Assembly: GCA_029288315.1 (NCBI GenBank)
Contig: JARIHL010000085.1
Span: 14,333-38,332, forward strand
Direction: 5' to 3'
Length of the DNA: 24,000 bases
Source: Candidatus Saccharimonadota bacterium
GTDB taxonomy: Bacteria > Patescibacteriota > Saccharimonadia > Saccharimonadales > EFPC-124
Part shown: positions 1,754-23,798 of the stretch, in pieces
Layout of the letters: each line of letters begins with the position of its first letter
Position numbering within the stretch: position 1 is the stretch's first letter
Translations under genes and position numbers: made by a program
The notes under the pieces: generated by a model
Told to the model about the DNA's origin: nothing
Database searches by the model: none
Seen by the model: the letters and a program-made list of their open reading frames with translations, nothing else

Positions 1754-1881
1754 GGCTCTCCTTTGTAAACATAGTAGCAACCAATCTTCTCTGTAGCAAC
1801 ATATGTTCCCTTAAAAAAAGAACACATTTGATGTATCATTAAAGCAATAGCACTATAGAATCCCAGCAAGGAGATCGTTAA

Positions 1882-2931: not shown

Positions 2932-2932
2932 G

Positions 2933-5199: not shown

Positions 5200-5200
5200 T

Positions 5201-6238: not shown

Positions 6239-6244
6239 AGGGTT

Positions 6245-7120: not shown

Positions 7121-7775
7121 TGCCAAGGTGCCTAAATACGATCTTACTAATTTTTCCATAAACAAACTGACTTCCAGTTTCATTTGGGTGTACAGCATCC
7201 TCAGCTAACATAGTAGCGCTATCAAAGTCTTCACGAAGATCAATGTAATCTGCTCCCGTTTCTACTGCATGAGCCCTTACAGCCTCATCGTATTCTTCGA
7301 AACGTGCATTATTAAAGATATTATCAGTCCAGTATTCTCTTGCTCTTTCTTCATCTACCGGAACGGCACTCAGATAAATAGGCGTAAAAGGAGAGTCCTC
7401 CCTGCCTTCATTTAAATCATCGATAACACCTTTTAGATCCGATAGATCGCGCTGAAAATCTGAAAGTAAGCGTCTAGGTGTCGGTACGCCGTCAGGATAA
7501 AGAACACAGGCTTCACAGGCTCCTATTGCGAAGATACCAAGCTGCCTACCTCGACGGTGACACTCAATATTAGCTGTAATTTGTTTAGAGTCAAGAGAGT
7601 GAACGAGCATATTGCCCGGTCCGGCGTGGTTTGCTACTGCAACATACGGCGGCTCCTGATTAAAGCGCCGTTCATCCGCCTCGTGTTTAAGTCGGGTTGT
7701 CCAATCTGACTCACGGCCATATATACCATAGGCTAAACTGTTCCCAAAGATATGTACTGTTGCCATCGGCAGCAT
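7107..7775 (-). CDS. SGNH/GDSL-family hydrolase (esterase/acyl-hydrolase-like)
   Basis: Block I VHIFGNSLAYG (GDS(L) variant with Ser), a central GxN-type block (GPGNML), and block V DAVHPN (DxxH) near the C-terminus. The 3' end overlaps the convergent SDR gene by 14 nt. Confidence 0.65.
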   Translation of the reverse strand: MLPMATVHIFGNSLAYGIYGRESDWTTRLKHEADERRFNQEPPYVAVANHAGPGNMLVHSLDSKQITANIECHRRGRQLGIFAIGACEACVLYPDGVPTPRRLLSDFQRDLSDLKGVIDDLNEGREDSPFTPIYLSAVPVDEERAREYWTDNIFNNARFEEYDEAVRAHAVETGADYIDLREDFDSATMLAEDAVHPNETGSQFVYGKISKIVFRHLGINNP

Positions 7776-8744: not shown

Positions 8745-9083
8745 ATGAAATATATTAGGAACTTTATCCTAATTGCTAGCATTGTTGGCACGATAGCAAC
8801 TTTATTAAACACGGATGTAGCATTTGCTGCCGATGGAGTTGCGCAAGCTGAAAATGCCTTAAAGGGATATATTAAGATCGGTATTTTACTTGCTGGCATC
8901 GTAGGGGTTGGCTTTGTAGTCATAGGTGCAATTAAGTATGCATCTGCATCTGGACACCCTGATAGGATGGAAAAAGCAAAAGACACAATCATTCATGCTC
9001 TTATCGGAGTAGCAATTGCGCTTGGTGCCTATGCATTAGTTGATATTGTCGCAAGTGTTGCGAAATCTGCCTTCGGAAGTTAA
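8745..9083 (+). CDS. T4SS pilin-like protein (VirB2/TrbC-like, Gram-positive/CPR 'T4SS_pilin' type)
   Basis: Signal peptide ending ...DVAFA|ADG, followed by two hydrophobic helices separated by a charged loop (ASASGHPDRMEKAKDT). First gene of the T4SS operon. Confidence 0.65.
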   Translation: MKYIRNFILIASIVGTIATLLNTDVAFAADGVAQAENALKGYIKIGILLAGIVGVGFVVIGAIKYASASGHPDRMEKAKDTIIHALIGVAIALGAYALVDIVASVAKSAFGS

Positions 9084-9087
9084 TACC

Positions 9088-10539
9088 GTGTTCAACAGCT
9101 TAAGTATCTTCGCGGACGCACAGGCCGCTTCTGAGGCGTTGAGATCAAATATTTCTCCAATGTTCTCAAATATGATTATAATAGCCGCTATTCTATGCGT
9201 GTTATTTGTAGTCTTTGGCGGCATCTATTATGCAACAAGTGGAGGCAATCCTGAAAAGCTTGAGCGTGCAAAGAAAACACTGCGAAATGCTTTCATTGGT
9301 TTTGTGGTGATACTCGGAGCAGGAACATTGGTTGCGATTATGCAGAACGCATATTCACAAAAAGCCGTGCAACCTACGCCAATTACACAGACACAAATTA
9401 AAGAAACAAAAAATGACTGTCCCCTGTGTGAGGTAATCAACCAGAGTGTTACAGGGTTTATTAATGGTATCGTCCAATCTATAGGAAAGCCAATCATTGA
9501 TGCCTTAAAACAGTTTACTACTGCAACTCCTCTTATGGCTCAGAATAGCGCGGTATTCAACTTATGGGCAGTTATTGTAGCAATTGCAGATGTACTTTTT
9601 TTACTTGTTATTGGGTTGATTGGATTCAGAATAATGAGCGCTTCTGTCATTGGATTTGAAGATGTGGATATCAGATCACTTCTGCCTCAAATTATTCTGA
9701 CCTTTATACTCGCCAACCTGTCTATATTTGCAATTGATGCAATAATTACAGTTTCTAATGCTATGATTCAAGCCTTGTTGATCGGTATGTCGAACGAGAT
9801 TATCTGGACGGCACTAGGTGGACTTATCGCGACAGCCGCTACTGTGAACATTGGTGTGCTAATCTTTATAGCAATTGCCATCATTCTAGCTGTCATGCTT
9901 CTCATCTATTATCTTAAACGTCTTATTATTCTCTACATTGGTGCGGTACTCTCACCTCTAATTGCTCTTCTTTGGCTACTACCGAGTTTCCGTGACTTTG
10001 CTATCTCATCGGCGAAGATGTACATTACTACAATATTCGTATTGTTTGTACAAGTTGTTGTGCTGATGCTTGCTGTTTCGTTATTCTCAGGGCTAATTCA
10101 AGGCGAAGGCAATCAGTTTATGACGGCTTTGCTTGCAATCGCTACGTTATCCGTGCTGCTCTCAACTAATAGAACAATGAACCAGTTAACGATGATGAGC
10201 GCTGGAGGTCAAGGAATGCGAAAGCTCGGCAATACCTTTGTGCGAGGTGTCAGTCATGTAGCAAGTTCTGTTAAACAGGCTGGAGCCGCCAAGCCAGAAG
10301 TTTCAGTATCCCGTAATAGTAGTCCAGCAGTCTCAAGTGCTCGACCAATAATGCCAGCCAGTACCGCACTTGCAACCGGAGAAACCCGCCAGGTATCACC
10401 GCGTAAAGCTGCCTCAGCTTTAACCGATAAAAAATCGTCACGCGAAGTTATGGTAACTGGTGGTGCTTCAAAACCAAATGTCACTATGACCGAAGCCCCT
10501 ATTAAAAAGACGCCTCGTATTCCGAAGGGAGGAAAATAA
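9088..10539 (+). CDS. Polytopic T4SS membrane protein: N-terminal pilin-like module fused to a VirB6/TrbL-like multi-TM domain with a disordered basic tail
   Basis: The N-terminus repeats the upstream pilin motif (FGGIYYATSGGNPEKLERAKKTLRNAFIGFVVILGAG). At least 5 further TM helices follow. The Ser/Pro/Lys-rich C-terminus is not hydrophobic. Start is uncertain: GTG 9088 just after the upstream stop, ATG 9040 (ORF track) or ATG 9160. Confidence 0.6.
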   Translation: MFNSLSIFADAQAASEALRSNISPMFSNMIIIAAILCVLFVVFGGIYYATSGGNPEKLERAKKTLRNAFIGFVVILGAGTLVAIMQNAYSQKAVQPTPITQTQIKETKNDCPLCEVINQSVTGFINGIVQSIGKPIIDALKQFTTATPLMAQNSAVFNLWAVIVAIADVLFLLVIGLIGFRIMSASVIGFEDVDIRSLLPQIILTFILANLSIFAIDAIITVSNAMIQALLIGMSNEIIWTALGGLIATAATVNIGVLIFIAIAIILAVMLLIYYLKRLIILYIGAVLSPLIALLWLLPSFRDFAISSAKMYITTIFVLFVQVVVLMLAVSLFSGLIQGEGNQFMTALLAIATLSVLLSTNRTMNQLTMMSAGGQGMRKLGNTFVRGVSHVASSVKQAGAAKPEVSVSRNSSPAVSSARPIMPASTALATGETRQVSPRKAASALTDKKSSREVMVTGGASKPNVTMTEAPIKKTPRIPKGGK

Positions 10540-11045
10540 TGAGAATTTCAATTGTTCCGGCCCAAATAACTACCGTTGAAGATAAGATTATCGGCAACAT
10601 CACCGTACAACAGGCAATGCTTCTTGGAGTTCCCATTCTAGTTGGATTTATTATTGCGATAGTGTTTCCACCTGCGGGTCAATTTGTTACATATAAAATT
10701 GCTATCGTGTTAGGGCTATTTGCAATTTGCGGTTCACTTGCTATCCGCATTAAAGACAGAATAATAGCGAAATGGATCAAGTTATTTGTCGTTTATTCTG
10801 CTCGCCCTCTTTACTATGTTTTCGATAAAAACTCGACATACTTGCGTAACCATGAAGAGTCGGAGGTTGTTGCAGAAACCACAGAAGATGTGAAACCAAT
10901 CAAGAAACCAGTTACTTTGACAAATAATATTTCGCCTAAAGAATTCGTCAGACTTGAGCAGTTCGCTACCGATGCTAGAGCGGGCATGAAATTTGAGGTT
11001 GGCAAGAAAGGAGAATTGAATGTTCATATTACCGAAGTTAAATAA
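10539..11045 (+). CDS. PrgI-like / VirB3-like small T4SS membrane protein
   Basis: N-terminal pattern ...EDKIIGNITVQQAMLLGVPILVGFIIAIVF plus a second TM helix. Positioned immediately upstream of VirB4, as VirB3/PrgI genes are. Start overlaps the upstream stop (TAATG), with a GGAGG SD. Confidence 0.55.
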   Translation: MRISIVPAQITTVEDKIIGNITVQQAMLLGVPILVGFIIAIVFPPAGQFVTYKIAIVLGLFAICGSLAIRIKDRIIAKWIKLFVVYSARPLYYVFDKNSTYLRNHEESEVVAETTEDVKPIKKPVTLTNNISPKEFVRLEQFATDARAGMKFEVGKKGELNVHITEVK

Positions 11046-11634
11046 AAAAGGCTCGTCGCGTCATCAGATTGCAATTAAGGGCGTTGAGGATAGCGTACTT
11101 ATTCTCCCGAATAATGAGTACCGAGTTATCATTGAAACATCTTCTATCAACTTTCATCTTATGAGTGAGGACGAGCAGGACGCGGTTGTCGATATCTACC
11201 AGGCATTTCTTAACTCGCTCTCTTTTCCAATCCAAATCGTGCAGAAAGTTCGTGCGCTCGACCTTGACGATTATCTTCAAGGCTTTGAAGCTAAGAAAGA
11301 AAAAGAATCTCTCGATGTCTATAAAAACCAAATCGATAGCTACACTAAATACGTCAAATCGCTCGTAAAAACAAATAAGATTCTTTCTCGCCAATTCTAT
11401 ATAGTTATTCCTTACCAAACAAAAGGCAAAGAAGGAGTAGAGGTAGCGAGAGAACAATTAGCAAACCGTCTCGCTATTGCCGAAAAGGGGCTTGGCAATG
11501 TTGGTATTAAGACACGTTTACTAAATAGCTTAGAGTTACTCGATCTATTCTATAACTCATACAATGCAACAGATGCGAAACAGCAACCCCTTACACAACA
11601 GACGATAGATTTATTGCAGAAGAATTATTTTTAA
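11020..11634 (+). CDS. VirB4 N-terminal-domain protein (separate ORF, in frame with the downstream VirB4 ATPase)
   Basis: IKGVEDSVLILPNNEYRVIIETSSINFHLMSEDEQDAVVDIYQAFLNSLSFPIQIV matches the conserved start of Gram-positive VirB4/TcpF/PrgJ-type proteins. AGGAG lies 6 nt before the ATG. Ends at TAA 11632-11634. Confidence 0.6.
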   Translation: MFILPKLNKKGSSRHQIAIKGVEDSVLILPNNEYRVIIETSSINFHLMSEDEQDAVVDIYQAFLNSLSFPIQIVQKVRALDLDDYLQGFEAKKEKESLDVYKNQIDSYTKYVKSLVKTNKILSRQFYIVIPYQTKGKEGVEVAREQLANRLAIAEKGLGNVGIKTRLLNSLELLDLFYNSYNATDAKQQPLTQQTIDLLQKNYF

Positions 11635-11643
11635 GGACACACC

Positions 11644-13389
11644 ATGAATTTAGTAAATCCAATTACAAAAATCAAAGAGATCCAAAAAGAGCGTGAAATG
11701 CGGCCAAAGCAGCATACTCTCTCATTCGGCGAACAGGATCCAATGGACATTATTTCTTATGCAGGAATGATGGAACAACCCGATCACCTTATCATTGATG
11801 GACAGTTCCGCCGCACCATTTTCATATCCGGCTATCCACACACGGCAGAAGTGGGATGGCTCGATTCGCTCACTCACCTTAATCATGATATAGATGTGTC
11901 ATATCATGTCGAGCAGGCTGACTCTAATGAAGCGCTAAAGAAGCTTGAGAAAAAGATTACACAACTCGAATCAATGCGCCGCGCGAAACTACGAGACGGC
12001 GGAATTATTGGTTCCGAAATTACCGATCCTCTCGATTCAGCTATGAATTTGCGGGATGCAATTCGACGAGGCCAACAGAAACTTTTTCATGTTTCTATCT
12101 ATGCGACTCTCGTAGCAGAATCACTAGAAGAACTAAATGATATCACTAACAGTTTAAAGTCTTCCCTCAGTGCCCGGCTGTTCTATATTAAGACCGCTCA
12201 GTATCAACAGGTCGAAGGATTACAGTCTACCTTGCCCCGTGGAGAGAATGCGCTCGCTCAGCGTCGCAACCTTGATAGTGAAACAGCGGCTTTAACATTT
12301 CCGTTTGTATCCTCTGAGCTAGTACAGCCAGGAGGTATTCTTTACGGAGTAAATAATTCAAATAACTCTTTGGTAATCATTGATCGCTTTAGTCTACATA
12401 ACGCCAACAGCATTACTTTTGCTCAATCAGGAAGTGGTAAGAGCTACACGACGAAAGTTGAAATTCTTCGTCAACTTATGCAAGGCACAAAAGTTATCGT
12501 GATTGACCCGGAGCGTGAGTATCAGAATCTCGCAAGTTCTGTCGGCGGTGCGTACATTAAGCTCTCTGCGCAGTCTGACCAAAAACTCAATCCGTTTGAT
12601 ATGGCGACAACCTCACGAAGTTCGGAGCAGCTGTCTTCTCATGCGCAAGACCTAACAGATGTCATCTCTCTGATGGTAGATGGCCTAAGCGCGCCAGAAA
12701 AAGCAGCACTTGATAAAGCAATCCTCGCAGTTTATTCAGCAAAGAAGAAAAGCTCTCCGATTCTTGAAGACCTATTCAAGCAGCTTAAGAAGATGAAGGA
12801 AGCAGAACTTTGTAAGCGACTCGAAAAGTATATCTCAGGCTCGCTTGCTAATGTATTTAATCACCAAACGAACATTAATTTGGATAATCGGCTTGTGGTC
12901 TTCGACATCAAAGACCTGCCTGAATCAATCCGGCAAATCATGATGATGATCGTCGCCAACTTTGTACAAAACACTGTAAAGCTTCATCCACAAAAACGAA
13001 TGCTTGTCATTGACGAAGGTTGGCTGCTGCTTGAACACGAAGAGACCGCACGCTTCGTTGCCGGGCTTGTCCGACGTGCTCGCAAGTATGGTCTTGGCGT
13101 ATCCATTATTACCCAACAGGCTAATGACTTCCTTTCCGACAAATATGGCCGTGCTATAGCATCACAAAGTTCGCTCCGTATTCTCATGCGCCAGGACACG
13201 ACTACTATTGAGCAGGTGACTCGCGAATTTCGGCTAAGTGATTACGAAAAGTCTTATCTTCTTACGAGTGATCGGGGTGATGCCCTGATCATCGCCGATC
13301 AACAACACGTATCCTTACACGTTACCGCCTCAGAAGAAGAGCATCCGCTCATTACTACCAACCCATTAGAGACGCTAAAAGACGAATAG
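11644..13389 (+). CDS. virB4: VirB4-family T4SS ATPase (central and C-terminal ATPase part)
   Basis: Walker A AQSGSGKSYT (about 12421-12450), Walker B MLVIDEGW, and the conserved ...GYPHTAEVGWLDSL... region upstream. Size and operon position fit. Confidence 0.9.
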   Translation: MNLVNPITKIKEIQKEREMRPKQHTLSFGEQDPMDIISYAGMMEQPDHLIIDGQFRRTIFISGYPHTAEVGWLDSLTHLNHDIDVSYHVEQADSNEALKKLEKKITQLESMRRAKLRDGGIIGSEITDPLDSAMNLRDAIRRGQQKLFHVSIYATLVAESLEELNDITNSLKSSLSARLFYIKTAQYQQVEGLQSTLPRGENALAQRRNLDSETAALTFPFVSSELVQPGGILYGVNNSNNSLVIIDRFSLHNANSITFAQSGSGKSYTTKVEILRQLMQGTKVIVIDPEREYQNLASSVGGAYIKLSAQSDQKLNPFDMATTSRSSEQLSSHAQDLTDVISLMVDGLSAPEKAALDKAILAVYSAKKKSSPILEDLFKQLKKMKEAELCKRLEKYISGSLANVFNHQTNINLDNRLVVFDIKDLPESIRQIMMMIVANFVQNTVKLHPQKRMLVIDEGWLLLEHEETARFVAGLVRRARKYGLGVSIITQQANDFLSDKYGRAIASQSSLRILMRQDTTTIEQVTREFRLSDYEKSYLLTSDRGDALIIADQQHVSLHVTASEEEHPLITTNPLETLKDE

Positions 13390-13391
13390 AT

Positions 13392-14018
13392 ATGCAGTAT
13401 ATCAGGATAGCTACCACTCTTTATTCATTCCGAAGAGAGATCGGTATTGTTCTTGGTGTGCTTGCAGCACTTATTATCCTTCCTATATTCGCCGTCATTG
13501 GCTTACTGAACAACGGCGTTCAGGGAGCCTCAGACGCTTTAGTATCTGTAGACCCAGTGACGCACAAGGTGGAAGTACGGGATGCTAAAGGTGGCCTTAT
13601 AACAACGCTGGATGCAACGACGACCTGGCCTATCAGAGGAGTTGTGACACAAGAATTCGGCCACCCCAACCCACCATACCAGACGACACACTCAGGAATA
13701 GACATTGACGGAGGATTTGGCTCCCCTGTGACTGTCTTTATGCAAGGAAAGGTTATTAAAGCAGGCGACAATGTGCTTGCTGGGTGTGGCTCGCACTGTG
13801 TCATCGTAGATCACGGTTTCGGAATTACCTCGATATACGCCCATATGTCAGCGCATAACGTGCAGGTTGGACAAACAGTCAAGCCAGGTGAGGTTATTGG
13901 ACGAGAAGGTGCCGAGGGGTGGGCAGAAGGCGCACACTTACACTTTGAGATACAAATTGCTCACATCCCCGTTAATCCACGCACATTCATGATAGGAAAC
14001 CCGCCACCAAGGAGCTAG
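13392..14018 (+). CDS. M23 (LytM-type) peptidoglycan endopeptidase, membrane anchored (VirB1-analogous wall hydrolase)
   Basis: N-terminal TM helix. HSGIDI (HxxxD, about 13690) and HLHFEI (HxH, about 13935) zinc motifs. Confidence 0.9.
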   Translation: MQYIRIATTLYSFRREIGIVLGVLAALIILPIFAVIGLLNNGVQGASDALVSVDPVTHKVEVRDAKGGLITTLDATTTWPIRGVVTQEFGHPNPPYQTTHSGIDIDGGFGSPVTVFMQGKVIKAGDNVLAGCGSHCVIVDHGFGITSIYAHMSAHNVQVGQTVKPGEVIGREGAEGWAEGAHLHFEIQIAHIPVNPRTFMIGNPPPRS

Positions 14019-14021
14019 ATT

Positions 14022-16379
14022 ATGGAGCATATTTTACAGCTCGGAAACAACGGCCTCATGATTACTTACTTAGTAATCGGTCTTAGTGTGCTTATTGGCG
14101 TATTCATTTTCATGGTCTTTTTACGTTTCACCGACCTAAAGAGAGTTTATAGCCAAAAGAAAGTATTTATTGAGGTAACACCTCCGCACGAAAGCAGCAA
14201 AACTCCCGAGGCAATGGAGCAGCTTTTCAATATTCTTTATAGCGCAGGTGCAACCCAAAAGTTCAGACACAAGCTCTTTCGCCGCAACAATGTATTCTCG
14301 CTTGAGGTCGTATCATCACGTCGGGAAGGAGTGAGGTATATTCTTGGAACGAGCGAGCGCGAAGCCGATTCTATTAAACGCAACATCGCTGCTTTCCTGA
14401 GTGATTCGAGGGTTAAAAGAATTGATGACCCGTTATTTAAACGGGACGTCTTCACAAAGGTAAAAGAATTCAAGCAGACGAAGCACTTTGCACTTCCTAT
14501 TCGTACCTTTCCTACATTTGAGCAACATGATCCAATAGCCTACATTACAGGGGCTATGAACAGGCTTGCTGACGAAGAGCAGGTTACGCTCCAACTTGTT
14601 ATCTCTCCTGCCCGTGTGCGCAATATGGCGGCAATCGTCGATCGCTACCATGAATTTTATAAAGTATCTGACGCAACACATAACAAAGGCTACGGGCATC
14701 TTTTTCGTACTGAATTGCGCGTCCGCGTTGTTGCTAACAACTCAAAAAATAAAGAAGAACGCTTGCATGGTATTGAATCGGCAATTGCTTCATTTAGTAT
14801 TCCGAAAGTACAAGTACTTAAAGCACGTTATAATTTCCCGCAGGCTCTACGAGGACGCTTTAGAGAGTGGGCGTTCATTCACCGCATGCCGTCCTTAATG
14901 ACACGCAATTCCAATGTATTCTCGTCACTAGAACTCGCTAACTTATATCACTTTCCGGCAAACCATACTAAAGCAGACAATCTGGTTGTGTCATTAAGTC
15001 GCACCCTCGCACCTCCGCTCTCAATCGTGAATAACACAGACTACGATATTGTTTTGGGACGAAACTTTCACAGAGGAATTTACACGGATATTGGCCTAAC
15101 CGCCAAAGAACGCGAGAAGCACCTCTTTATCATTGGTGGTACAGGGAACGGTAAAACTACGATGCTTGAATATACGCTTGTTCAAGACATAAAGAATGGC
15201 AAAGGCGTGGCTATTGTTGATCCGCATGGAGACTTGGCGGAATCGCTGCTTTCTTCGATACCAAAAGATCGAGAAAAGGATGTTATTTACTTTAATCCCG
15301 ATGACCTATCGTACCCAATTGGATTAAATCTACTCGAATTAACGCCTGGCTTAGATGAAGAGGGCTCATTACGCGAGCGTGACCTTGTGACCGAATCCGT
15401 TGTCTCAATTTTTCGTAAGATATTCTCTGAAGATGACAGTGGCGGCCACCGTATAGAATATGTACTTCGTAACGCCATCCACACCGCTCTCACCGTAGTT
15501 AACCCTACGCTATTCACTATTTACGATCTCCTCAATGATCCAAGCTATCGAAAGAAAGTAGTTGCCAATCTTGAGAATAAAGACTTAAAGAACTTCTGGC
15601 GGAATGAGATGGGCAAAGCCGGCGGCATGCAGCAGGTGAAAATGGTCGCCGGAATCACCTCAAAAATTGGACGCTTCCTATTCTCGGCCTCAGCAAAACG
15701 GATTCTTGAGCAACCCAAGTCAACAATCAATTTCGACGAGATTCTCAACGGCAAGATATTAATCTGTAACTTCTCAAAAGGCTTAGTGGGAGAAGATACC
15801 TCTGAACTATTTGGCATCGCTGTCCTTGCAAAACTACAACTTGCCGCCCTGCGTCGAGCACGGCTACCGCAAAGTGAGCGTGTTCCATTTTATCTTTATG
15901 TTGATGAGTTCCAAAACTTTGCGACTCCTTCGTTTAAGCAAATGCTATCTGAGGCTCGAAAATACAAACTATTTCTCACAATGGCTGAACAAAGTACCTC
16001 GCAACAAGAAGACTACCAAATGGTGGATGTTATTCTTGCGAATGTCGGCACGGTTATAAGCTTCCGATCTGGCAACCCTTCGGACGAAAAGAAACTATTG
16101 CCTTACTTCAAACCATATTTAGAAGAAGGTGATATTGCCAGCCTTCCTTCATTCAACTTTTATATAAGAATTTCGGCGGTTAAGATTCAGGAAGCATTTT
16201 CTGGGGAAACAATACTACCTAACCGTAGTTCAAACACAAATAACAACAGGGTTATTGAACTTTCAAGAAAGAATTACACTGTTAAATTTGAAGCTTCAAA
16301 TTCAAAGCCAGCCGTTAAAAGGGTCAAGAAAGCCGCTACTCAATCGAAACCTAAAGCCACCCTAAAAAGGCCGGAATAA
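14022..16379 (+). CDS. virD4: Type IV coupling protein (VirD4/TraG/TraD-like ATPase) with a long N-terminal extension
   Basis: N-terminal TM helix. Walker A IIGGTGNGKTT (about 15131-15165, near aa 370), Walker B YLYVDEFQNF, and the C-terminal ...MAEQSTSQ... block typical of T4CPs. AAGGAG SD. Confidence 0.85.
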   Translation: MEHILQLGNNGLMITYLVIGLSVLIGVFIFMVFLRFTDLKRVYSQKKVFIEVTPPHESSKTPEAMEQLFNILYSAGATQKFRHKLFRRNNVFSLEVVSSRREGVRYILGTSEREADSIKRNIAAFLSDSRVKRIDDPLFKRDVFTKVKEFKQTKHFALPIRTFPTFEQHDPIAYITGAMNRLADEEQVTLQLVISPARVRNMAAIVDRYHEFYKVSDATHNKGYGHLFRTELRVRVVANNSKNKEERLHGIESAIASFSIPKVQVLKARYNFPQALRGRFREWAFIHRMPSLMTRNSNVFSSLELANLYHFPANHTKADNLVVSLSRTLAPPLSIVNNTDYDIVLGRNFHRGIYTDIGLTAKEREKHLFIIGGTGNGKTTMLEYTLVQDIKNGKGVAIVDPHGDLAESLLSSIPKDREKDVIYFNPDDLSYPIGLNLLELTPGLDEEGSLRERDLVTESVVSIFRKIFSEDDSGGHRIEYVLRNAIHTALTVVNPTLFTIYDLLNDPSYRKKVVANLENKDLKNFWRNEMGKAGGMQQVKMVAGITSKIGRFLFSASAKRILEQPKSTINFDEILNGKILICNFSKGLVGEDTSELFGIAVLAKLQLAALRRARLPQSERVPFYLYVDEFQNFATPSFKQMLSEARKYKLFLTMAEQSTSQQEDYQMVDVILANVGTVISFRSGNPSDEKKLLPYFKPYLEEGDIASLPSFNFYIRISAVKIQEAFSGETILPNRSSNTNNNRVIELSRKNYTVKFEASNSKPAVKRVKKAATQSKPKATLKRPE

Positions 16380-16430
16380 ATCTGTTTTTAAAAAACAGAT
16401 CAACTTGCACTTGTAAACAAGATGCAAGTT
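16380..16430. terminator. Two adjacent hairpins between convergent operons (bidirectional terminator region)
   Basis: Hairpin 1: atctgttttt (16380-16389) pairs with aaaaacagat (16391-16400), a perfect palindrome. Hairpin 2: aacttgcacttgt (16402-16414) pairs with acaag-a-tgcaagtt (16417-16430), with one bulge. Confidence 0.6.
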
Positions 16431-16452
16431 ACTAATATAATAGTTTCTATAG

Positions 16453-17154
16453 TTAATCTTGAGAATCTGTGGAGTATAGCTTTTTATTAACTAATTCTAT
16501 TTTGCGAATATCTAAGTCTAAGCCCATGACGGCCAAAACTCTAACTATGTCCATCATGTGCACTAAAGCTGCTTTCCGAATATTAAACCTTAGAGTTTCG
16601 CCCAACTGTTTTTCGACTAAATATACATAGTAAGCAGGATTCGCATGGGTGAATGCACTAAAATAATCATATATCTGAACTGTCCCTGGGCCACGCGCAG
16701 CGATCCTATCTTGTATGGTCGAGGAAGTCCAAGGATTTGGATACTTTAAAGAATACTCTTCATTCGCCAGCATTTTTGTCGCCATACGTTTCATGGAATC
16801 CACATAAGTATCGACACTATCTTTATACGATTGAGCACGATCATCGACTTTTTCGGGATCAACTACTATGTGATGAATATCTGCTCCGACTTCCATAAGG
16901 GCACGTACAAGACTTGCGGCACTTAGCGTTAGGCTTACTTTGTCAATCTTGGTTAAAGCGATTGCGGTCAAATAATATTCAAGACCCATTCGATATGCCA
17001 GGCGCATTGAAGTCTGGAGTGGAGTCTCTTGAGCGAAATTACCCTTTGAATAGTGCAGATTTACCTTATCTATAAGCTCAGCCATGTCACCATGAATTTC
17101 TGCCAGTAAATCAAAATTAAGCTGCGTCATCGTAATTCCGCTATTCTTTCTCAC
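16453..17154 (-). CDS. Hypothetical all-helical protein (233 aa), weak resemblance to DUF5677/AbiV-like proteins
   Basis: Third gene of a co-directional trio with 44-48 nt gaps. Motifs AASLVRALMEVGADIHHIV and IYDYFSAFTHANP recall DUF5677-type helical proteins, from memory only. GTG start at 17154; alternative ATG at 17130. Confidence 0.55.
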   Translation of the reverse strand: MRKNSGITMTQLNFDLLAEIHGDMAELIDKVNLHYSKGNFAQETPLQTSMRLAYRMGLEYYLTAIALTKIDKVSLTLSAASLVRALMEVGADIHHIVVDPEKVDDRAQSYKDSVDTYVDSMKRMATKMLANEEYSLKYPNPWTSSTIQDRIAARGPGTVQIYDYFSAFTHANPAYYVYLVEKQLGETLRFNIRKAALVHMMDIVRVLAVMGLDLDIRKIELVNKKLYSTDSQD

Positions 17155-17198
17155 TCATACAGCCATTATAACTTTAACTCAAGTTTTCTGATGAAGTT

Positions 17199-18620
17199 CT
17201 ATATCATCTCTATCTTTTGACGCTGAGAAGCTATATCGTCCTTCGTTTTAATACCTTCTGATGCGAACATTGAGGCCATACTACCGTCAGGCCAGCCGGT
17301 AACGCTTCTTTGGATATGTGCCCAAGCTTGATCTTTAAACCCGTCGAATGTTTTATGGTCACTAGCCTTAAAGAGATTGTTTACAAAAGAATACTTCTTG
17401 AACAGCTTGATAAAGTGTGGCTGGTACTGCTGACCGTAGTCATCACCTACTAAAAGGTAGATCATCCAAGCGGGGCTATCAACCAAGAACCACATTAAAA
17501 TTGAACCATCTATGTATGTTTGAAGTAAATCATCATCGTTAGAATGGCGCTTTATAATAAACTTGCTAATTGACCCGACATCGTTTTTCTTTATATAGTT
17601 AGCGACACCTTGCGGGAAATGTCGTAGTCTATCTAATCCGACTAACTTATCATACTTATTTGGCCTTTTAAATTTCTGTTCCGTAAGCGTTGCAAGGAAC
17701 GACCACCAATTTTCCTTCGCTACGCAACCGATTATTAGCGCCGCAAGCTCGTATACGATAAGTCCATGATATTCTTTCGAGGCTTCACTTAATCCGCCTA
17801 TGTCTTCGGGAAGGACATCAAAGTATTTAGATAGATTCCCCAGTTTCTTATACGCAGCAATTAAGACGTCTTCTTTCTTGTGCTCAGCCGCCATACTAAC
17901 AACGTCATAGCACTCTTGTATTAGAGGTAGGGATTTTTCATAGGCATCTGCAACTTTGCCAAAATATTCGCTACCATCCTCGCTATGCTTGTATCTTCCT
18001 GGATACAGCTTGTTAATCTCGTCATATAAGTTAGTGAAGTAGGCTTCCGCCAAACGTCGGGCTGGCTTGTCGTCCTCAATTGCCTGAGTCAATTTGTCTT
18101 TGGCAGATTCGGTCTGGACTATCTCTAACTTGGCCTGGATATCTTGCAGATGTGCCGCAAGGATTTCCTCAAGCTCTTTCATCAATGCCACGCCCCTTTT
18201 GTCATCATTAAGCGAAAAATCGACGACCCGATTTTGGGCTATATCAAAGGGCAGCAATCCCTTATCACCTAGGTCAGAGTTGAGAAGTACGACTGTCGCT
18301 TCATCGCCCAACTTTCCGGTGGCATAGCCTAGCTCATACATAACATTTTGATTGACCATTGCTCGCCCAGACTCACCCTTATCCACTAAGGTCAAGTCCG
18401 CTACAAAAACGTCAGCTAAATCAATTTTCTTTCGGATGGTCGTTGGTATATTGATCGACCCAACTTTACCTTGTGTATCCTTGTCGAAGCGGGGCGCAAG
18501 CTCGATATCTGGATTCTCGGCAAGGTTGTCAATCGCAGCTCGAAGCGCCTTCTCGATAAAGTGTCTAGTTTTAGTATGATCCGATTGCCATGAATAGAAA
18601 ATAACAGGATTGGGATTCAT
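17199..18620 (-). CDS. TIR-like / nucleoside 2-deoxyribosyltransferase-like domain protein with a roughly 300-aa helical C-terminal domain
   Basis: N-terminal strand VIFYSWQSD, ADVFVADLT, and VNQNVMYELGYATGKLG (18321-18356 on the plus strand) containing the conserved Glu of the E(L/I)GYA motif of this fold. The remainder is helical with no recognised domain. Confidence 0.65.
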   Translation of the reverse strand: MNPNPVIFYSWQSDHTKTRHFIEKALRAAIDNLAENPDIELAPRFDKDTQGKVGSINIPTTIRKKIDLADVFVADLTLVDKGESGRAMVNQNVMYELGYATGKLGDEATVVLLNSDLGDKGLLPFDIAQNRVVDFSLNDDKRGVALMKELEEILAAHLQDIQAKLEIVQTESAKDKLTQAIEDDKPARRLAEAYFTNLYDEINKLYPGRYKHSEDGSEYFGKVADAYEKSLPLIQECYDVVSMAAEHKKEDVLIAAYKKLGNLSKYFDVLPEDIGGLSEASKEYHGLIVYELAALIIGCVAKENWWSFLATLTEQKFKRPNKYDKLVGLDRLRHFPQGVANYIKKNDVGSISKFIIKRHSNDDDLLQTYIDGSILMWFLVDSPAWMIYLLVGDDYGQQYQPHFIKLFKKYSFVNNLFKASDHKTFDGFKDQAWAHIQRSVTGWPDGSMASMFASEGIKTKDDIASQRQKIEMI

Positions 18621-18668
18621 TATTACTTTGCCTTTTATATATTGCTACTTCTATAGTATCAGGTAATG

Positions 18669-19898
18669 TTATTCGGGCAGCCTTAATCGCCCCTGTTCAA
18701 TCATTGTCTGATGATAAGTATCTGAATCTCTTTCGTCATCCAAAGTCGCCATCTCAAAAGATCGTCCACGTCTGTACGGCCCGTGCATTAACGCGAATTC
18801 GGCTTTAAACCTTAACAACATATTCATATTACTACCGCCGTCAGGATCGTAGCCTTCCTGCCATGGTCTCCTTTCGTCTGCGTCAAATGCCTCTGTTCTA
18901 CCATCTGAATAGCCGAAATAGATTTGTCCTCCACCCGACAAAGGTCGTGGATCGGGCATGAATAGATAGCCGCTACCGAATTGTCCCCATTCCTCACCGT
19001 TTACATATCTTTCGGGATACAACCAGTCTTTGTTACCTGCGGCAACATAACGCAATGCTCTCTTCTTAATCACATAGTTGATTTGTCTTACCTCATGTTC
19101 GCTAAGATGCCTTTGGGTTTGGATAGACAAAAAATTAAATACAGCATCTCTAAAGAAACTGGAGTTTGGCCTTAGCTGAAGCGCGTTCTGATACGGATTC
19201 TTTGCCCACGATTTATTAGTTAATATAAGCACCTTCTCGCGAGACAGCGGGAAGATGGTGTGAGATGCGTTATATCGTATATCGGGATCATTAAAGCCCC
19301 GATTCTCGTGACTTCTGGGTAGTAGTCTTCTGTTATATACAGTTACAGGGTGGTCTGAGAAAATAAACTTTGTATCGGATTGACTAGCATCTGCAATCTG
19401 CCAAATGCATCCAGTCCACACGGCTGAATACAAATTTTTCAACTGCATCATTCGAGTAAGCAATATATTTCGATCATCAGTTCCTACGAGCTGGGATAGC
19501 CAACCTAGACCCTTAGGGGTGCGCAGTTTCTGAGCACTCATGTAAGTGACCATGTTACGAGCAGCTTTCGCATCGATTGATGGATGCTCGAAATTCGTAA
19601 AGTAATCCACGGCATTCTTTCCAAAGCCATCAATACCACCAAAAAACTTCTGCTCGATAATGGTCGACCTTCGAGTTCCGTTTTGTAAGGTATACAAATC
19701 ATCTTCTTTAAATGATTTTTCGATAGAATGCGTCCGTAACTCATTAGCTGGGTGCGCCACGCCCGAACGATCAAAGAAGACAGGTGGGGTTAAATCCAGC
19801 AGTTGAATTGTTCCATTTGTCTGCCCGTCTTCTAAAAACCTCCGTTGATACCATTGAGGAACGTAGTGGTTATTTGTATATTCTCTATTATCGAACAT
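18669..19898 (-). CDS. DUF4238-family protein (409 aa)
   Basis: The N-terminal signature NNHYVPQWYQRRFLEDG matches the hallmark HYVPQFYLRxF start of DUF4238. AGGA SD lies 8 nt upstream. First gene of the trio. Confidence 0.65.
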   Translation of the reverse strand: MFDNREYTNNHYVPQWYQRRFLEDGQTNGTIQLLDLTPPVFFDRSGVAHPANELRTHSIEKSFKEDDLYTLQNGTRRSTIIEQKFFGGIDGFGKNAVDYFTNFEHPSIDAKAARNMVTYMSAQKLRTPKGLGWLSQLVGTDDRNILLTRMMQLKNLYSAVWTGCIWQIADASQSDTKFIFSDHPVTVYNRRLLPRSHENRGFNDPDIRYNASHTIFPLSREKVLILTNKSWAKNPYQNALQLRPNSSFFRDAVFNFLSIQTQRHLSEHEVRQINYVIKKRALRYVAAGNKDWLYPERYVNGEEWGQFGSGYLFMPDPRPLSGGGQIYFGYSDGRTEAFDADERRPWQEGYDPDGGSNMNMLLRFKAEFALMHGPYRRGRSFEMATLDDERDSDTYHQTMIEQGRLRLPE

Positions 19899-20124
19899 TC
19901 ATAGAATCCTGATATATTTCTACTTCTATTTTACTTCTTTTCTACGAAAGTATGACCTCCGAGTGGCTTGAAGAAGAGGTGTTGTGGGCGTTAAGCAAGC
20001 AAACAGGTAGTGCATGCCTTTGGAGTGATTTGCTCAATCTGTCGATTGGCCGTGTAAACTGGCTAGAGGTTATCGAGAATAATAAACAGTAGCCAAGAAC
20101 GTCCTGGGCATGACGATAAACTGC

Positions 20125-20934
20125 CTATATAGTATTCAATAACTTTAATTCTTCGAGGGAGAAAGCTTTATCCGGATTGTCAGCACTACGCCACGACTTC
20201 TTATCGCCGTTCAAAATATCACTCTTCAATGCCGTATATCCTATCAGACCATCCTTGTCGCCAATAATCTTGTGGAGGCGCTTCTCGATATTCGGACTGT
20301 CTACGGCGAATAATAATATCGGAAAATTCGTACCCGTGTCATCCCATACGCCACTCTCAAAGTAGTCCATGTATTTCTTAACTGCCCTTGTCGCAACGAA
20401 GAAGGGTTGATGAGCATGGTGTACTTGTAGGAAATACTGTTTATCACTTCCGAGTCTTATATACGCATCTGGAAGTGGCTGAGGGAAGTATTCGTAGTCT
20501 TCATGTTTTAGATCTACTTTAGTAAAAAACTTGAGGTCAGAATTGTGTGATCGTAACGCTAGAAAGATATTAAATAAGTCGAAACAATCTTGGATGAACT
20601 GTTCGGATACGCTCTTGTCTTTATATATGACGCTTACTCTTACTCGTATATTCAGTGTTGGTTTATTTCGTTGGAGCCTACGTATCCCCTCGGGTAATAA
20701 ATGGTATGCGACTGGCTTATGAAGAAGTCTGTAATTATCAAAGTACCTTTTTGCTATGAGTCCTTGTTGCTCAAGTGTCTCAAGCCTTCTAAACACATTC
20801 ATACCTGGATTCGACTTAACAAAATACATTTTTAATGACGCTGACGATACAAATCGAAACTTATACAGTAATTCTAATATCTGTAGTTGTTCGGTATTTA
20901 GTGGGCGTCTGTATTTTGGTTCTGTATTATTCAT
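20125..20934 (-). CDS. Replication-relaxation family protein (winged-helix N-terminus; putative atypical relaxase/replication initiator)
   Basis: LNTEQLQILELLYKFRFVSSASLKMYF...VFRRLETLEQQGLIAKRYF...YHLLPEGIRRL follows the Replic_Relax wHTH pattern (family recalled from memory). Located between the T4SS/cargo and the recombinase. Confidence 0.5.
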   Translation of the reverse strand: MNNTEPKYRRPLNTEQLQILELLYKFRFVSSASLKMYFVKSNPGMNVFRRLETLEQQGLIAKRYFDNYRLLHKPVAYHLLPEGIRRLQRNKPTLNIRVRVSVIYKDKSVSEQFIQDCFDLFNIFLALRSHNSDLKFFTKVDLKHEDYEYFPQPLPDAYIRLGSDKQYFLQVHHAHQPFFVATRAVKKYMDYFESGVWDDTGTNFPILLFAVDSPNIEKRLHKIIGDKDGLIGYTALKSDILNGDKKSWRSADNPDKAFSLEELKLLNTI

Positions 20935-21135
20935 GTCTGTAGCTATGCTCTATATATTTATATATTAAAGAGAGAGAAATATAAAGGTGTATATAAGGAG
21001 TTAGTGTAGTTAGATAGGTGCAATTCGGGGAGTGCAGCTATATTGTGCATAAAACAGCAGTCTAGTACTTCCTTACTAGGACTACTAATACTATAATATA
21101 ACTATGACTAGTAGTACTACAAGGGGGCTATAAAA

Positions 21136-21306
21136 ATGAGCAAGAAAGATGCGGAAGCTGAGGATCTAGCTATTCAGGATACACTTGCCATGGATGTGCA
21201 AGATCGCCTAAAACTTCTCGCAGCATTAATCGTGGACAAAATAGAAGAAGATCAACGTAATGAACACACCTTATTTAAAACAATCTCAGAGGCTCAAAAT
21301 GCCTAG
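21136..21306 (+). CDS. Small acidic hypothetical protein (56 aa), possible recombination directionality factor or regulator
   Basis: Absent from the supplied ORF track. AGGGGG SD lies 9 nt upstream of ATG 21136. Its stop overlaps the probable recombinase start (ATGCCTAG). Sequence: MSKKDAEAEDLAIQDTLAMDVQDRLKLLAALIVDKIEEDQRNEHTLFKTISEAQNA. Confidence 0.4.
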   Translation: MSKKDAEAEDLAIQDTLAMDVQDRLKLLAALIVDKIEEDQRNEHTLFKTISEAQNA

Positions 21307-23104
21307 TAATCAAACTGCGGTCGGCAATGTTGTTGGTGCCATTAGAGTATCGACTGTTAAGCAAGGAATTGATGGAGATTCACCCGACGACCAGCAAAGA
21401 CTTATCGAGCAGTACGCAGCTGGACGCAACTTAAATGTCGCACGCTACTTCGTTTTTTTGGAGTCAGGCTCAAAAGAGCTACAGCCAATGCAAGAAGTTG
21501 TAGATTACTGTAAAGACCCTAAGAACAATGTCAAACAAGTTATCATTAAGTCGATTGATCGTTTTACGCGTGGTGGCTCAGAGTTTTATAGTATGCTCAA
21601 GAATCAGCTCGATGATTGTGGCGTTGCTCTTGTTGATGTGTATGGTATCATTGGTAACCAAAAAATAAATACGCTCGAACATCTCGGCGTAAAGTACAAA
21701 TGGAGCGAGTATTCACCGACCAAGAAAGCTGAGATGCTTGAGGCTGAACGCGCAAAAGACGAGGTGCGAGATATTCAAACTCGTATGATTGGTGCGCAGA
21801 TTCGCTACGCACGCATGGGTTATTGGGTACGCCGGGCATTACATGGTTTTGATAATGTCCATGTGGAAACGCGAGACGGCAAGCGATGCATATTGAAACC
21901 AAATGAGATTGAAGCTCCTCAGGTCATTAAAATGTTTGAGTTGCGAGCACGCGGCACAATGGAGGACATTGAAATTGTTGAAGAGATAAATAAGTTTGGC
22001 TTCCGCACGCGAGAGCGCGTTATTAGAGATAAAGAGGATCGAACTAAAATTATTCAAGTAATCGGCGGTGAACCACTTACTCTTAAGCAGCTATGGCGTA
22101 TGATTGAAAATCCAGTTTATGCTGGGGTAAATCCTGAAAAGTGGACGCAAGGCAACCCTGTTAAATGTAAGTTCGACGGACTCGTATCATATGAGCTTTT
22201 CAATGCCGCCAATAGAGGAAAAATTATTATCACAGAAGACGGTGATGGCGTACATATTTATCGCCGTAAACCCGCAGACCATCTCGTCAAGAAAGGTGTT
22301 AAGAATTCTGAGTTTCCATTTAAACGAATAGTCATGTGCCCTGGTTGCAAGAAGCCGTTATATGGCAGCTCATCGCGCGGTAGGCACGGTAAGTACTTTC
22401 CTGCTTATCACTGTAATCAACGTGGCGATCATTACTTTCGAAAATCTAAAAAAGAATTTGATAATACAATCGAAGAGTTTGTGAAGCATTTAGCCGTATC
22501 CGATGAATATATTGCTGAATTAATGGAATATGTCGGTGAGGCATTCGATAAGCAGCAAATGGAAGCTCATAAAGACTCTGTAGCGATTGACCTGCGCCTT
22601 ACGCAGCTCCGCAGCCAAATACGCGTGAACGTGGACAAGATTAAGCTTGTAAGCTCCGAGACGACGATTAAGTACCTCGAAGAAGATATCGCTAAATTGG
22701 AGGTTGAGATAGCCGAACTAACGTCACAACGTCAGACAGAAGAAGAGCAGAAACCTGTTGATATGGAGAAAATGAAAGCATATGTCGAATACTTCCTGGC
22801 ACACCTCGAAGAACTACTGTTGCACCACAGTAACCCAGTACTTCAAGCCAAGTATTTCGGCGTGATATTTAATAGTGCGCCAACCTACGATGATATCGTA
22901 TCTGGCACCCCTGATTGTTCAAAAATAACAGGGGTGAATACGGTGTTTATACCGAAAAAATTAAATAATGAACTCATGGCAGGGGTGGAGGGATTCGAAC
23001 CCCCGGCCCTTGGTTTTGGAGACCAATGCTCTACCACTGAGCTACACCCCTTCATACCGAATGTTTCGGCTCGGCTGCATCATTATAGCAAATATACGTG
23101 GTAA
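21299..23104 (+). CDS. Large serine recombinase (resolvase catalytic domain + recombinase domain + zinc ribbon + coiled coil)
   Basis: Catalytic GAIRVSTVKQ (about 21341-21361) and DRFTRG. Zinc ribbon CPGCKKPLYGSS...YHCNQRG (about 22336-22420). Coiled-coil LRSQIRVNVDKIKL...IAKLEVEIAELT. Probable start is ATG 21299 (GAGG SD); the ORF-track ATG is 21260. The last ~43 codons (22977-23104) are antisense to tRNA-Trp and its upstream region. Confidence 0.9.
   Translation: MPSNQTAVGNVVGAIRVSTVKQGIDGDSPDDQQRLIEQYAAGRNLNVARYFVFLESGSKELQPMQEVVDYCKDPKNNVKQVIIKSIDRFTRGGSEFYSMLKNQLDDCGVALVDVYGIIGNQKINTLEHLGVKYKWSEYSPTKKAEMLEAERAKDEVRDIQTRMIGAQIRYARMGYWVRRALHGFDNVHVETRDGKRCILKPNEIEAPQVIKMFELRARGTMEDIEIVEEINKFGFRTRERVIRDKEDRTKIIQVIGGEPLTLKQLWRMIENPVYAGVNPEKWTQGNPVKCKFDGLVSYELFNAANRGKIIITEDGDGVHIYRRKPADHLVKKGVKNSEFPFKRIVMCPGCKKPLYGSSSRGRHGKYFPAYHCNQRGDHYFRKSKKEFDNTIEEFVKHLAVSDEYIAELMEYVGEAFDKQQMEAHKDSVAIDLRLTQLRSQIRVNVDKIKLVSSETTIKYLEEDIAKLEVEIAELTSQRQTEEEQKPVDMEKMKAYVEYFLAHLEELLLHHSNPVLQAKYFGVIFNSAPTYDDIVSGTPDCSKITGVNTVFIPKKLNNELMAGVEGFEPPALGFGDQCSTTELHPFIPNVSARLHHYSKYTW
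22977..23051 (-). tRNA. tRNA-Trp: tRNA-Trp (anticodon CCA), CCA end encoded
   Basis: The reverse complement folds by hand into a 75-nt cloverleaf: AGGGGTG-TA-GCTC-AGTGGTA-GAGC-A-TTGGT-CTCCAAA-ACCAA-GGGCC-GGGGG-TTCGAAT-CCCTC-CACCCCT-G-CCA. Strong resemblance to E. coli tRNA-Trp. Confidence 0.95.
23082..23090 (-). promoter_or_regulatory. Extended -10 promoter (TGcTATAAT) for tRNA-Trp
   Basis: The reverse complement of 23082-23090 is TGCTATAAT, 30 nt upstream of the mature tRNA 5' end. A second copy (TGCTATACT) is at 23145-23153. Confidence 0.45.
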
Positions 23105-23156: not shown

Positions 23157-23798
23157 ATGAAAGCACTTAACCTGGCGCAGCCGCTTGTAGTGATGATGAT
23201 TGGCATACCCGGAGCTGGTAAAAGCTTCTTTGCCAGACGTTTCTCAGATACATTTGGCGCGCCAGTGGTCAGTGAAGATCGTATTCGCTATGAACTGTTT
23301 TCGCAATCACAATTTACTTCTGAAGAAAACGACATTGTCAAGCGATTAACCGAGTACCAAATTCAAGAGCTTCTAAAAACAAAGCGCACATTCATTGTTG
23401 ATGGTGGCTGCAATGTCAAAACTGAACGGCTCCATATGAAACAGTTAGCAAAACAGGCCGGTTATAACTTATTAAGCGTCTGGGTTCAAACACATGAGCC
23501 GACGGCTCAAGGCCGGGCGATGAAACGTAGTTCGCGCCGTGAAGATGATAAATATACCCTCAGTCTGAGCGCTGAACAATTTGCTTATTTTGCTCGCCGC
23601 TTAACCGCACCTCATCGCGAAAACTATGTGGTGATAAGCGGCATGCAGACATATAGCACTCAGGCAAAAGCGGTGCTCAGGCGCATTGCCGCCACTCGCG
23701 AAGCCCAGGCCCATGAAGCTCATAAATTAGAAAATGAGGCGACTTTTCAGCAGGCTCGAGGCATCCATACAACACGCAGAAGTATTATCCTTAGATAA
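23157..23798 (+). CDS. P-loop NTPase, kinase-like (AAA_33 / zeta-toxin / polynucleotide-kinase-like ATP-binding protein)
   Basis: Walker A at the N-terminus (MIGIPGAGKSFF), followed by ...SEDRIR.. and ...IVDGG... typical of small P-loop kinases. Basic C-terminal tail. Confidence 0.7.
   Translation: MKALNLAQPLVVMMIGIPGAGKSFFARRFSDTFGAPVVSEDRIRYELFSQSQFTSEENDIVKRLTEYQIQELLKTKRTFIVDGGCNVKTERLHMKQLAKQAGYNLLSVWVQTHEPTAQGRAMKRSSRREDDKYTLSLSAEQFAYFARRLTAPHRENYVVISGMQTYSTQAKAVLRRIAATREAQAHEAHKLENEATFQQARGIHTTRRSIILR

Follow-up and report, generated by a model that had tools for sequence, protein, structure and literature searches.

The window analysed here is a 24,000-nucleotide stretch from a Candidatus Saccharimonadota bacterium (GenBank assembly GCA_029288315.1, contig JARIHL010000085.1, positions 14,333 to 38,332 of the forward strand). 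A gene on its minus strand, at 17199..18620, encodes a 473-residue protein (the focal protein) in which an N-terminal TIR head of the CAP12/Pycsar type is joined to a C-terminal helical tail that, by profile comparison, is homologous to the C-terminal domain found in the anti-phage protein bSEFIR. We propose that this is probably a single-gene abortive-infection protein directed against phages or other mobile genetic elements and built like bSEFIR, in which the tail would sense infection and the TIR head would cleave NAD+. The parts of the gene, in window coordinates, are as follows.

17199..18620, minus strand: focal gene, encoding a protein of two domains, a TIR head of CAP12/Pycsar type and a helical tail of bSEFIR type (open reading frame, homologues, dN/dS, AlphaFold2)
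18201..18620, minus strand: N-terminal domain, residues 1-140, five-stranded alpha/beta and TIR-like, a predicted NAD+ glycohydrolase effector (Pfam, Foldseek, PADLOC)
18333..18335, minus strand: codon of the predicted catalytic glutamate, Glu96, which belongs to the motif N-Q-N-V-M-Y-E-L-G-Y-A (translation, alignments)
18111..18191, minus strand: long connecting helix, residues 144-170 (DSSP on the AlphaFold2 model)
17202..18110, minus strand: C-terminal all-helical domain, residues 171-473, a predicted sensor or regulatory module (AlphaFold2, hhalign)
18621..18668, minus strand: 48-nt spacer 5' of the start codon (read from the sequence)

A conserved gene for a two-domain protein

The listing of open reading frames (ORFs) in the window gives a complete gene with an ATG start, 473 codons and a stop codon, exactly where a first-pass annotation made from the bare sequence had reported, without giving a strand, a protein of this length. 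The motif strings quoted in that annotation are all present and in the order given: PVIFYSWQSD at residues 5-14, ADVFVADLT at residues 70-78, NQNVMYELGYATGKLG at residues 90-105 (window 18306-18353, minus strand), VVLLNS at residues 110-115, LPFDI at residues 123-127 and LQDIQAKLEIVQTESAKDKL at residues 158-177. The focal protein has 203 homologues at E<=1e-3, and its full-length relatives are 464-483 residues long with identities from 88% down to ~23%. Comparison with the gene of an 84%-identical relative yielded a dN of 0.087 with saturated dS (>2). Because of these homologues, this substitution pattern and a predicted structure with a predicted local distance difference test (pLDDT) score of 85.4, the ORF is a real gene under strong purifying selection and not a chance reading frame. 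The nearest relatives belong to Candidatus Saccharibacteria/Saccharimonadales, and the family comprises hundreds of clusters at 50% identity from Saccharibacteria, Paceibacterota, cyanobacteria, Acidobacteria, Planctomycetes, Chloroflexi and other groups. The spacer upstream of the gene contains a Shine-Dalgarno-like AAAGG motif ~10 nt before the ATG, together with AT-rich -10-like hexamers. A scan for promoters and terminators at the gene gave background levels only.

The structure of the full-length protein was modelled with AlphaFold2 (AF2) using a 38-sequence alignment. The head strands of the model lie at residues 6-10, 44-47, 71-75, 109-114 and 131-135, and Glu96 is located within a helix spanning residues 91-104. 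The order of elements deduced in the first-pass annotation (strand, helix, strand, followed by the glutamate-bearing helix and two strands) agrees with this model. The coiled-coil-like linker that it described is predicted as one long helix (residues 144-170), the end of which shows a dip in pLDDT (residues 168-170), and nothing was obtained to indicate a true coiled coil. From residue 173 to ~455 the model is all-helical, in keeping with the helical remainder of ~300 residues that had been anticipated. Membrane-like features were noted in neither the sequence nor the model, no transmembrane prediction having been run. Two well-defined domains are thus predicted, with an uncertain mutual orientation, and the predicted TM-score (pTM) of 0.64 for the full-length protein versus 0.90 for the tail modelled alone (pLDDT 88.2) suggests a flexible arrangement of head and tail.

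The head as a CAP12/Pycsar-type TIR domain

Residues 1-140 constitute a TIR domain of the CAP12/Pycsar type, an assignment that is borderline by score and convincing by structure and motifs. The corresponding Pfam family, PF10137, is matched by 38 of the 38 aligned relatives at E<=0.05 (best E 4e-7), and a precomputed PF10137 annotation is attached to many orthologues. When the PDB was searched with the full model using Foldseek, the matches included the TIR-STING/Cap12 structures 9lmq and 7un8, MilB (4jel/4jem), the nucleoside 2-deoxyribosyltransferase (NDT) 8qc0 and DNPH1 (8qhq), with probabilities of ~1.0 and E values of ~1e-2 to 1e-1, and the credible matches fell within the head only. A CAP12/Pycsar TIR protein in the BFVD database was matched at E 2e-5. 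PADLOC returned weak TIR-effector and PDC-S35 matches for the focal protein. A profile of 22 head sequences, compared with the sequences in the PDB, ranked NDT 6qai, PycTIR 8jsj and Cap12 7un8 as the top three, with the NxNVxxELGY motif of the family aligned on FELGYA in 6qai, LEFG in 8jsj and FEFG in 7un8, and LPFD aligned on LPSD or LPTD. The same PDB sequence search gave nothing significant with the single focal protein or with a full-length profile. Matches of the linker and the first helices to GGA1 were set aside as low-complexity helical noise.

These structural matches agree with the TIR/NDT fold group in which the N-terminus had been placed at first pass, and they do not point to an unrelated fold. 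The more specific label given there, DUF1863/ThsB-like, is abandoned in favour of the PF10137 (CAP12/Pycsar) clade, since PF08937 (DUF1863/ThsB) is matched by neither the focal protein nor any of the 38 relatives. In addition to their fold, the focal head and the CAP12 (TIR-STING)/PycTIR proteins (7un8, 9lmq, 8jsj) share the xNVxxE(F/L)G and LPxD motifs and, presumably, an NAD+ glycohydrolase chemistry that assembly switches on. They differ in overall construction. The focal protein has no STING, SAVED or cyclic-nucleotide-binding domain and no cyclase gene nearby, and its head is N-terminal, with a bSEFIR-type helical tail as the regulatory domain.

Glu96 is invariant in both the 38-sequence and the 22-sequence alignments, and the first-pass annotation had named its conservation among homologues as a test of the predicted active site. 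Among 300 unique head homologues, all 295 sequences ungapped at this position have Glu, a count that is partly circular because genomic loci were recruited through the FYSWQSD and NxNVxxELG motifs. The wider NxNVxxELGY/LPFD signature is likewise invariant across head homologues. In the published structures of Cap12 and PycTIR the Glu of the FEFG/LEFG motif is the catalytic residue, and Glu96 is the predicted catalytic glutamate of the focal head.

The same fold and motifs could serve an NDT/DNPH1/MilB-type N-glycosidase acting on nucleotides or nucleosides, which within the same architecture and defence logic would deplete or damage (deoxy)nucleotides, possibly the modified ones of phages. PF05014 (NDT) is weakly matched in 8 of the 38 relatives (best E 1.1e-3), the YELGYA of the focal protein is nearly identical to the FELGYA of NDT 6qai, and the BFVD matches of the model also include a phage CMP/hmCMP hydrolase. 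We nevertheless regard this alternative as unlikely. PF10137 is found in every relative with better E values, the focal protein itself has no PF05014 match at E<=0.1, and its alignment with Cap12 and PycTIR covers both the LP-x-D motif and the surroundings of the Glu. The TIR_2, SIR2 and SEFIR heads that are exchangeable on the tail (see below) are all NAD+ enzymes. As known proteins, the NDT, DNPH1 and MilB enzymes have a similar flavodoxin-like fold and are small, stand-alone metabolic enzymes that lack a sensor tail.

Relationship of the tail to bSEFIR

The tail had been left unassigned in the first-pass annotation. This holds to the extent that the focal tail has no match in Pfam, NCBIfam or PADLOC and that its stand-alone model has no fold match in the PDB (best Foldseek E 0.026, TM <=0.30, root-mean-square deviation (rmsd) >13 Å), but a homologous domain can now be named. 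The tail of one relative, P0153, is the sole member of the family to match the PADLOC bSEFIR model (E 1.4e-6). A tblastn search of 72,556 plasmids with this tail returned SEFIR-annotated proteins in Bacillus velezensis, Pseudomonas luteola, Clostridium botulinum and Leptospira, a SIR2-family protein in Azospirillum, and TIR proteins in Acinetobacter, Burkholderia, Bacillus and Deinococcus. The B. velezensis (473 residues) and P. luteola (479 residues) proteins are bSEFIR from end to end according to PADLOC, with E values of 1e-105 and 1e-122. With hhalign, run with the alignment of the focal family, focal residues 173-471 were aligned to bSEFIR residues 178-473 over ~270-280 columns with probabilities of 97.9% and 98.2% (E 7e-13 and 3e-14). 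An E291 motif (x-H/Y-E-hydrophobic) and R358 are common to the tails of both families. These profile alignments make the focal tail a homologue of the bSEFIR C-terminal domain. The DUF5677-like and DUF4238 proteins encoded beside the focal gene were rejected as possible kin of the tail (hhalign probability ~0.1%), a comparison that doubles as a negative control.

The focal protein is not itself a bSEFIR member, because it matches neither the SEFIR head nor the PADLOC profile. Pfam gave no match to SEFIR (PF08357) in the focal protein, the PADLOC bSEFIR model PDLC03957 was matched by neither the focal protein nor its tail, and a PADLOC run on 15 tail sequences gave no bSEFIR match. Comparison of the head profile with the bSEFIR head by hhalign (1.1% probability) revealed no detectable relation.

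As a defence made up of one protein, bSEFIR has been validated against phage phi29 (10.1101/2022.05.11.491447). It reportedly depletes NAD+ through its N-terminal SEFIR domain and is overcome by NARP1, a phage pathway that rebuilds NAD+ (10.1101/2024.02.11.579819). The focal protein resembles bSEFIR (Millman et al. 2022; PDLC03957) in its length class (473 residues versus 473-479 in the two plasmid proteins examined), in its layout of a ~150-residue STIR-clan head, a linker and a ~300-residue helical tail of homologous type, and in being encoded by a single gene on a mobile element. It differs in that its head is not a SEFIR domain and its host lineage is Saccharibacteria-like. Both of these plasmid bSEFIR genes lie in phage-like regions (loci L090/L091). 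The one of B. velezensis is surrounded by YopX/YoqO SPbeta-type genes and adjoins a DUF262 gene, and the one of P. luteola lies between HicAB and HigA modules, near terminase and portal genes and a reverse transcriptase.

Within the focal family, conserved positions of the tail are P207, E291, W306, R358 and P401, and a HEPN-like Rx4-6H motif was found to be absent by eye around R358. Designed armadillo and other helical repeats were considered as fold relatives and no assignment was made (rmsd >13 Å). Rows for dynamin, TRAPP and MxB in the Foldseek search with the full model were discarded for the tail at rmsd values above 20 Å. A profile of 15 tail sequences, searched against 1.84 billion representative proteins, matched 1351 clusters at E<=1e-3, including 291 at E<=1e-30. 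Most of the top 150 tail matches are 465-490 residues long and carry the same CAP12-type head, and both head and tail are present in 171 of the collected proteins. Seven proteins of 276-313 residues (P0126, P0132, P0137, P0147, P0159, P0160 and P0203) appear to be stand-alone tails. Those starting at profile position 2-30 may be fragments from short contigs, and those with 10-20 extra residues may be genuine head-less forms.

Exchange of heads and tails

The tail is also found with other heads. These are TIR_2 in five proteins (P0139, P0161, P0176, P0183 and P0214), SIR2_2 in three (P0189, P0228 and P0232), a Ser/Thr kinase (Pkinase) in five (P0134, P0188, P0220, P0225 and P0258), PIN_4 in P0168, and nSTAND1 with a LuxR-type helix-turn-helix in P0153. 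Conversely, the head occurs with other partners, as in an 815-residue NACHT+HEAT protein (P0095) and a 709-residue Cpn60/TCP1-like protein (P0118). Head and tail are thus independently mobile modules, as one would expect in conflict systems if the head is an effector and the tail a regulator or sensor. A tail that is swapped among varied heads also supports the first-pass suggestion that it is a sensor or oligomerisation domain. TIR, SIR2 and SEFIR, three of the head types that replace the focal one, are NAD+-consuming immune effectors. Further head architectures (P0055-P0066, P0085-P0091, P0095 and P0118) include ~270-residue Saccharibacteria proteins with a different C-terminus of ~100 residues and proteins with a 115-residue N-terminal extension.

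The breadth of the tail family and the occurrence of the conserved polar residues E291 and R358 in bSEFIR tails as well would also fit a protein in which the tail carries the activity and the TIR-like head, without catalysing anything, binds a ligand or mediates an interaction, comparable to a SLOG-like or an adaptor TIR domain. This is extremely unlikely, given that the invariant head signature is typical of an active site, that the tail pairs with clearly enzymatic heads (SIR2, kinase and PIN), and that the tail resembles no enzyme in fold or in sequence.

Neither the combination of this head with this tail nor the tail as a head-swapping module is described in Pfam, NCBIfam, PADLOC v2 or the literature searched. 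The swapping of effectors on a sensor is a familiar theme. The tail family, however, is large, lacks a solved fold and is tied to a validated system. If our interpretation is correct, an unannotated protein family is joined to bSEFIR through a common tail undescribed in any database, bSEFIR becomes one branch of a modular superfamily with TIR, SEFIR, SIR2, kinase and PIN heads rather than an isolated system, and the tail is nominated as the sensing element, so that the trigger could be sought once for all branches. A bolder proposition, which we offer as speculative and on balance doubtful, is that the tail is an undescribed and very widespread infection-sensing module with a new all-alpha fold, mounted on at least six chemistries (CAP12-TIR, TIR_2, SEFIR, SIR2, Ser/Thr kinase and PIN), so that all these proteins would form one superfamily of immune sensors, each a single protein, that includes bSEFIR and responds to a common class of trigger, and that the head of the CAP12 branch might cleave nucleotides instead of NAD+.

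Proposed mechanism

In the mechanism that we propose for the focal protein, the helical tail of ~300 residues would keep the protein inactive and detect a cue of infection, which would probably be a phage protein or a nucleic-acid or nucleotide signal. Detection of the cue would drive self-association, and the assembled CAP12-type TIR heads would form active sites in which Glu96 would cleave the nicotinamide-ribose bond of NAD+. The resulting depletion of NAD+ would stop growth of the infected cell. The analysis itself establishes what the two domains are, their modular exchange, the lack of a conserved partner gene and the mobile and defence surroundings. The NAD+ substrate, activation by oligomerisation, the sensor role of the tail and the anti-phage phenotype are all inferred by analogy with Cap12/PycTIR and bSEFIR.

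Further parallels are provided by the one-protein NADases of the DSR1/DSR2 type, in which an N-terminal NAD+-consuming head and a C-terminal phage-sensing region are likewise encoded by a single gene (10.1101/2024.02.11.579819), and SIR2 heads do occur on the focal type of tail, in the three SIR2_2 proteins listed above. However, the only PADLOC match to Dsr1 is a marginal one to the SIR2 head of P0189, and the focal tail, at 300 residues, is much smaller than the DSR sensing region and unrelated to it by any search run.

Several observations weigh against the proposed NAD+-cleaving immune function, in addition to the partial circularity of the Glu96 count. The sole Pfam match of the focal head, to PF10137, scores 23.6 bits and is just below the cut-off of 24.7. 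The PDB matches of the head profile are individually non-significant (E 0.075-0.25, with Cap12 and PycTIR at E 0.1-0.25), and the best single one is NDT 6qai. When TM is normalised to the target, the small targets MilB (0.58-0.60) and DNPH1 (0.59) score above TIR-STING, which would be compatible with a nucleotide substrate. The kinase and PIN heads indicate that the tail is not bound to NAD+ chemistry, and the enrichment of defence genes in the neighbourhoods of homologues is moderate, many neighbours being housekeeping or unknown genes. Finally, no mechanism or trigger of bSEFIR was found in the literature searched on bSEFIR and SEFIR escape mutants.

Genomic neighbourhoods of homologues

Homologues of the focal gene often, though not always, lie in mobile-element or defence surroundings. 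The gene for P0016 (76% identity, locus L094) occupies the same slot between relaxase and coupling protein, in the same element backbone, with different flanking genes. That for P0007 (84% identity, locus L092, 8558-15425) adjoins genes for a 1173-residue PLD-SNF2 helicase, a 1052-residue MmeI-like methyltransferase and a SIR2_2 protein, the whole forming a dense defence cluster that has a relaxase and a serine recombinase as neighbours. P0023 follows an MmeI-like restriction-modification (R-M) gene and P0070 abuts a serine recombinase. A complete type I R-M operon contains P0033 (37% identity, locus L005, 4488-11813) as an insertion between its hsdM and hsdS genes, with gene ends that overlap or abut, and is followed by YgjP-like, HNH and MauJ genes. 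The position between hsdM and hsdS is the classic one of an R-M-guarding suicide effector such as PrrC or RloC. The focal family has no sequence or fold kinship with these proteins, and the embedding occurs in one lineage only and is absent from the window.

Across 24 full-length loci from many phyla, with 87 neighbours in total, no conserved neighbour was found, as each Pfam family is represented at most three times, and flanking genes differ even between relatives of 76-84% identity. The focal gene is therefore a self-contained unit. This bears on whether the head could be a signalling TIR like ThsB of Thoeris, producing a cyclic ADP-ribose-type messenger that activates an effector encoded elsewhere. 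Bacterial defence TIRs often make signals (10.64898/2025.12.03.692087), and the invariant Glu would suit such chemistry too. We consider this highly unlikely, since no conserved adjacent gene, such as one for a ThsA-like effector, accompanies the 24 loci or the close relatives, the family matched is that of effector-type TIRs of Pycsar and of cyclic-oligonucleotide-based anti-phage signalling systems (PF10137) and not PF08937, and the equivalent SIR2, PIN and kinase heads are terminal effectors.

The conjugative element in the window

The region 9040-23104 of the window is a conjugative element, similar to integrative and conjugative elements (ICEs), in a Saccharibacteria-like genome, and the focal gene is part of its cargo. 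If our interpretation is correct, an immune-type gene is thereby recorded among the cargo of a conjugative element in a bacterium of the candidate phyla radiation, which is ultra-small and epibiotic. The annotated features are as follows.

9040-10539: type IV secretion system pilin
11644-13389: TraG/VirB4-like ATPase
13392-14018: M23 peptidase
14022-16379: coupling protein
16453-17154, minus strand: cargo gene, DUF5677-like, 233 residues (DUF5677 sub-threshold, 22.4 versus 27.1 bits)
17199-18620, minus strand: cargo gene, the focal gene
18669-19898, minus strand: cargo gene, DUF4238, 409 residues (DUF4238 E 6e-21)
20125-20934: Replic_Relax relaxase
21260-23104, plus strand: large serine recombinase, 614 residues
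22977-23051, minus strand: tRNA-Trp

The end of the serine recombinase ORF overlaps the tRNA-Trp gene on the opposite strand. Because the ORF reads through this gene, tRNA-Trp is the likely integration site of the element, and the true C-terminus of the recombinase may be shorter than the ORF.

The three cargo genes are co-directional and closely spaced, with the DUF5677-like gene 44 nt downstream and the DUF4238 gene 48 nt upstream of the focal gene. Since the DUF4238 family includes a protein from a P2 hotspot that protects against T7 (10.1101/2021.01.21.427644), the cargo region resembles a small defence islet. The DUF4238 gene of the window has no PADLOC match, and DUF4238 is not conserved beside relatives of the focal gene. 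The DUF5677-like protein is helical and its start is uncertain (a GTG is listed and ATG codons are nearby). This downstream gene was rejected as a conserved partner, its protein being unrelated to those encoded by the 237-residue gene after P0023 and the 232-residue gene after P0016.

The cargo slot between relaxase and coupling protein, which is shared with P0016, and the spacing of the three genes raise the question of whether the focal protein serves the element itself, as an addiction or stabilisation toxin or as an exclusion factor against competing plasmids and ICEs, with the DUF4238 or DUF5677-like gene as a possible antidote. Such a role is very unlikely in view of the variable flanking genes of close relatives, the presence of distant relatives in chromosomal R-M operons that lack conjugation genes, and the homology of the tail to that of a validated anti-phage protein.

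Outside the element, just past tRNA-Trp, lies a gene for a 213-residue AAA_33/zeta-toxin-like kinase (23157-23798, plus strand). To the left of the element, the region 884-7775 contains a sugar/cyclitol-type biosynthetic cluster with genes for a nucleotidyl transferase, a ROK kinase, a DHQ-synthase-like protein, two zinc/NAD dehydrogenase-like proteins, an RmlD/epimerase-like reductase and a GDSL hydrolase.

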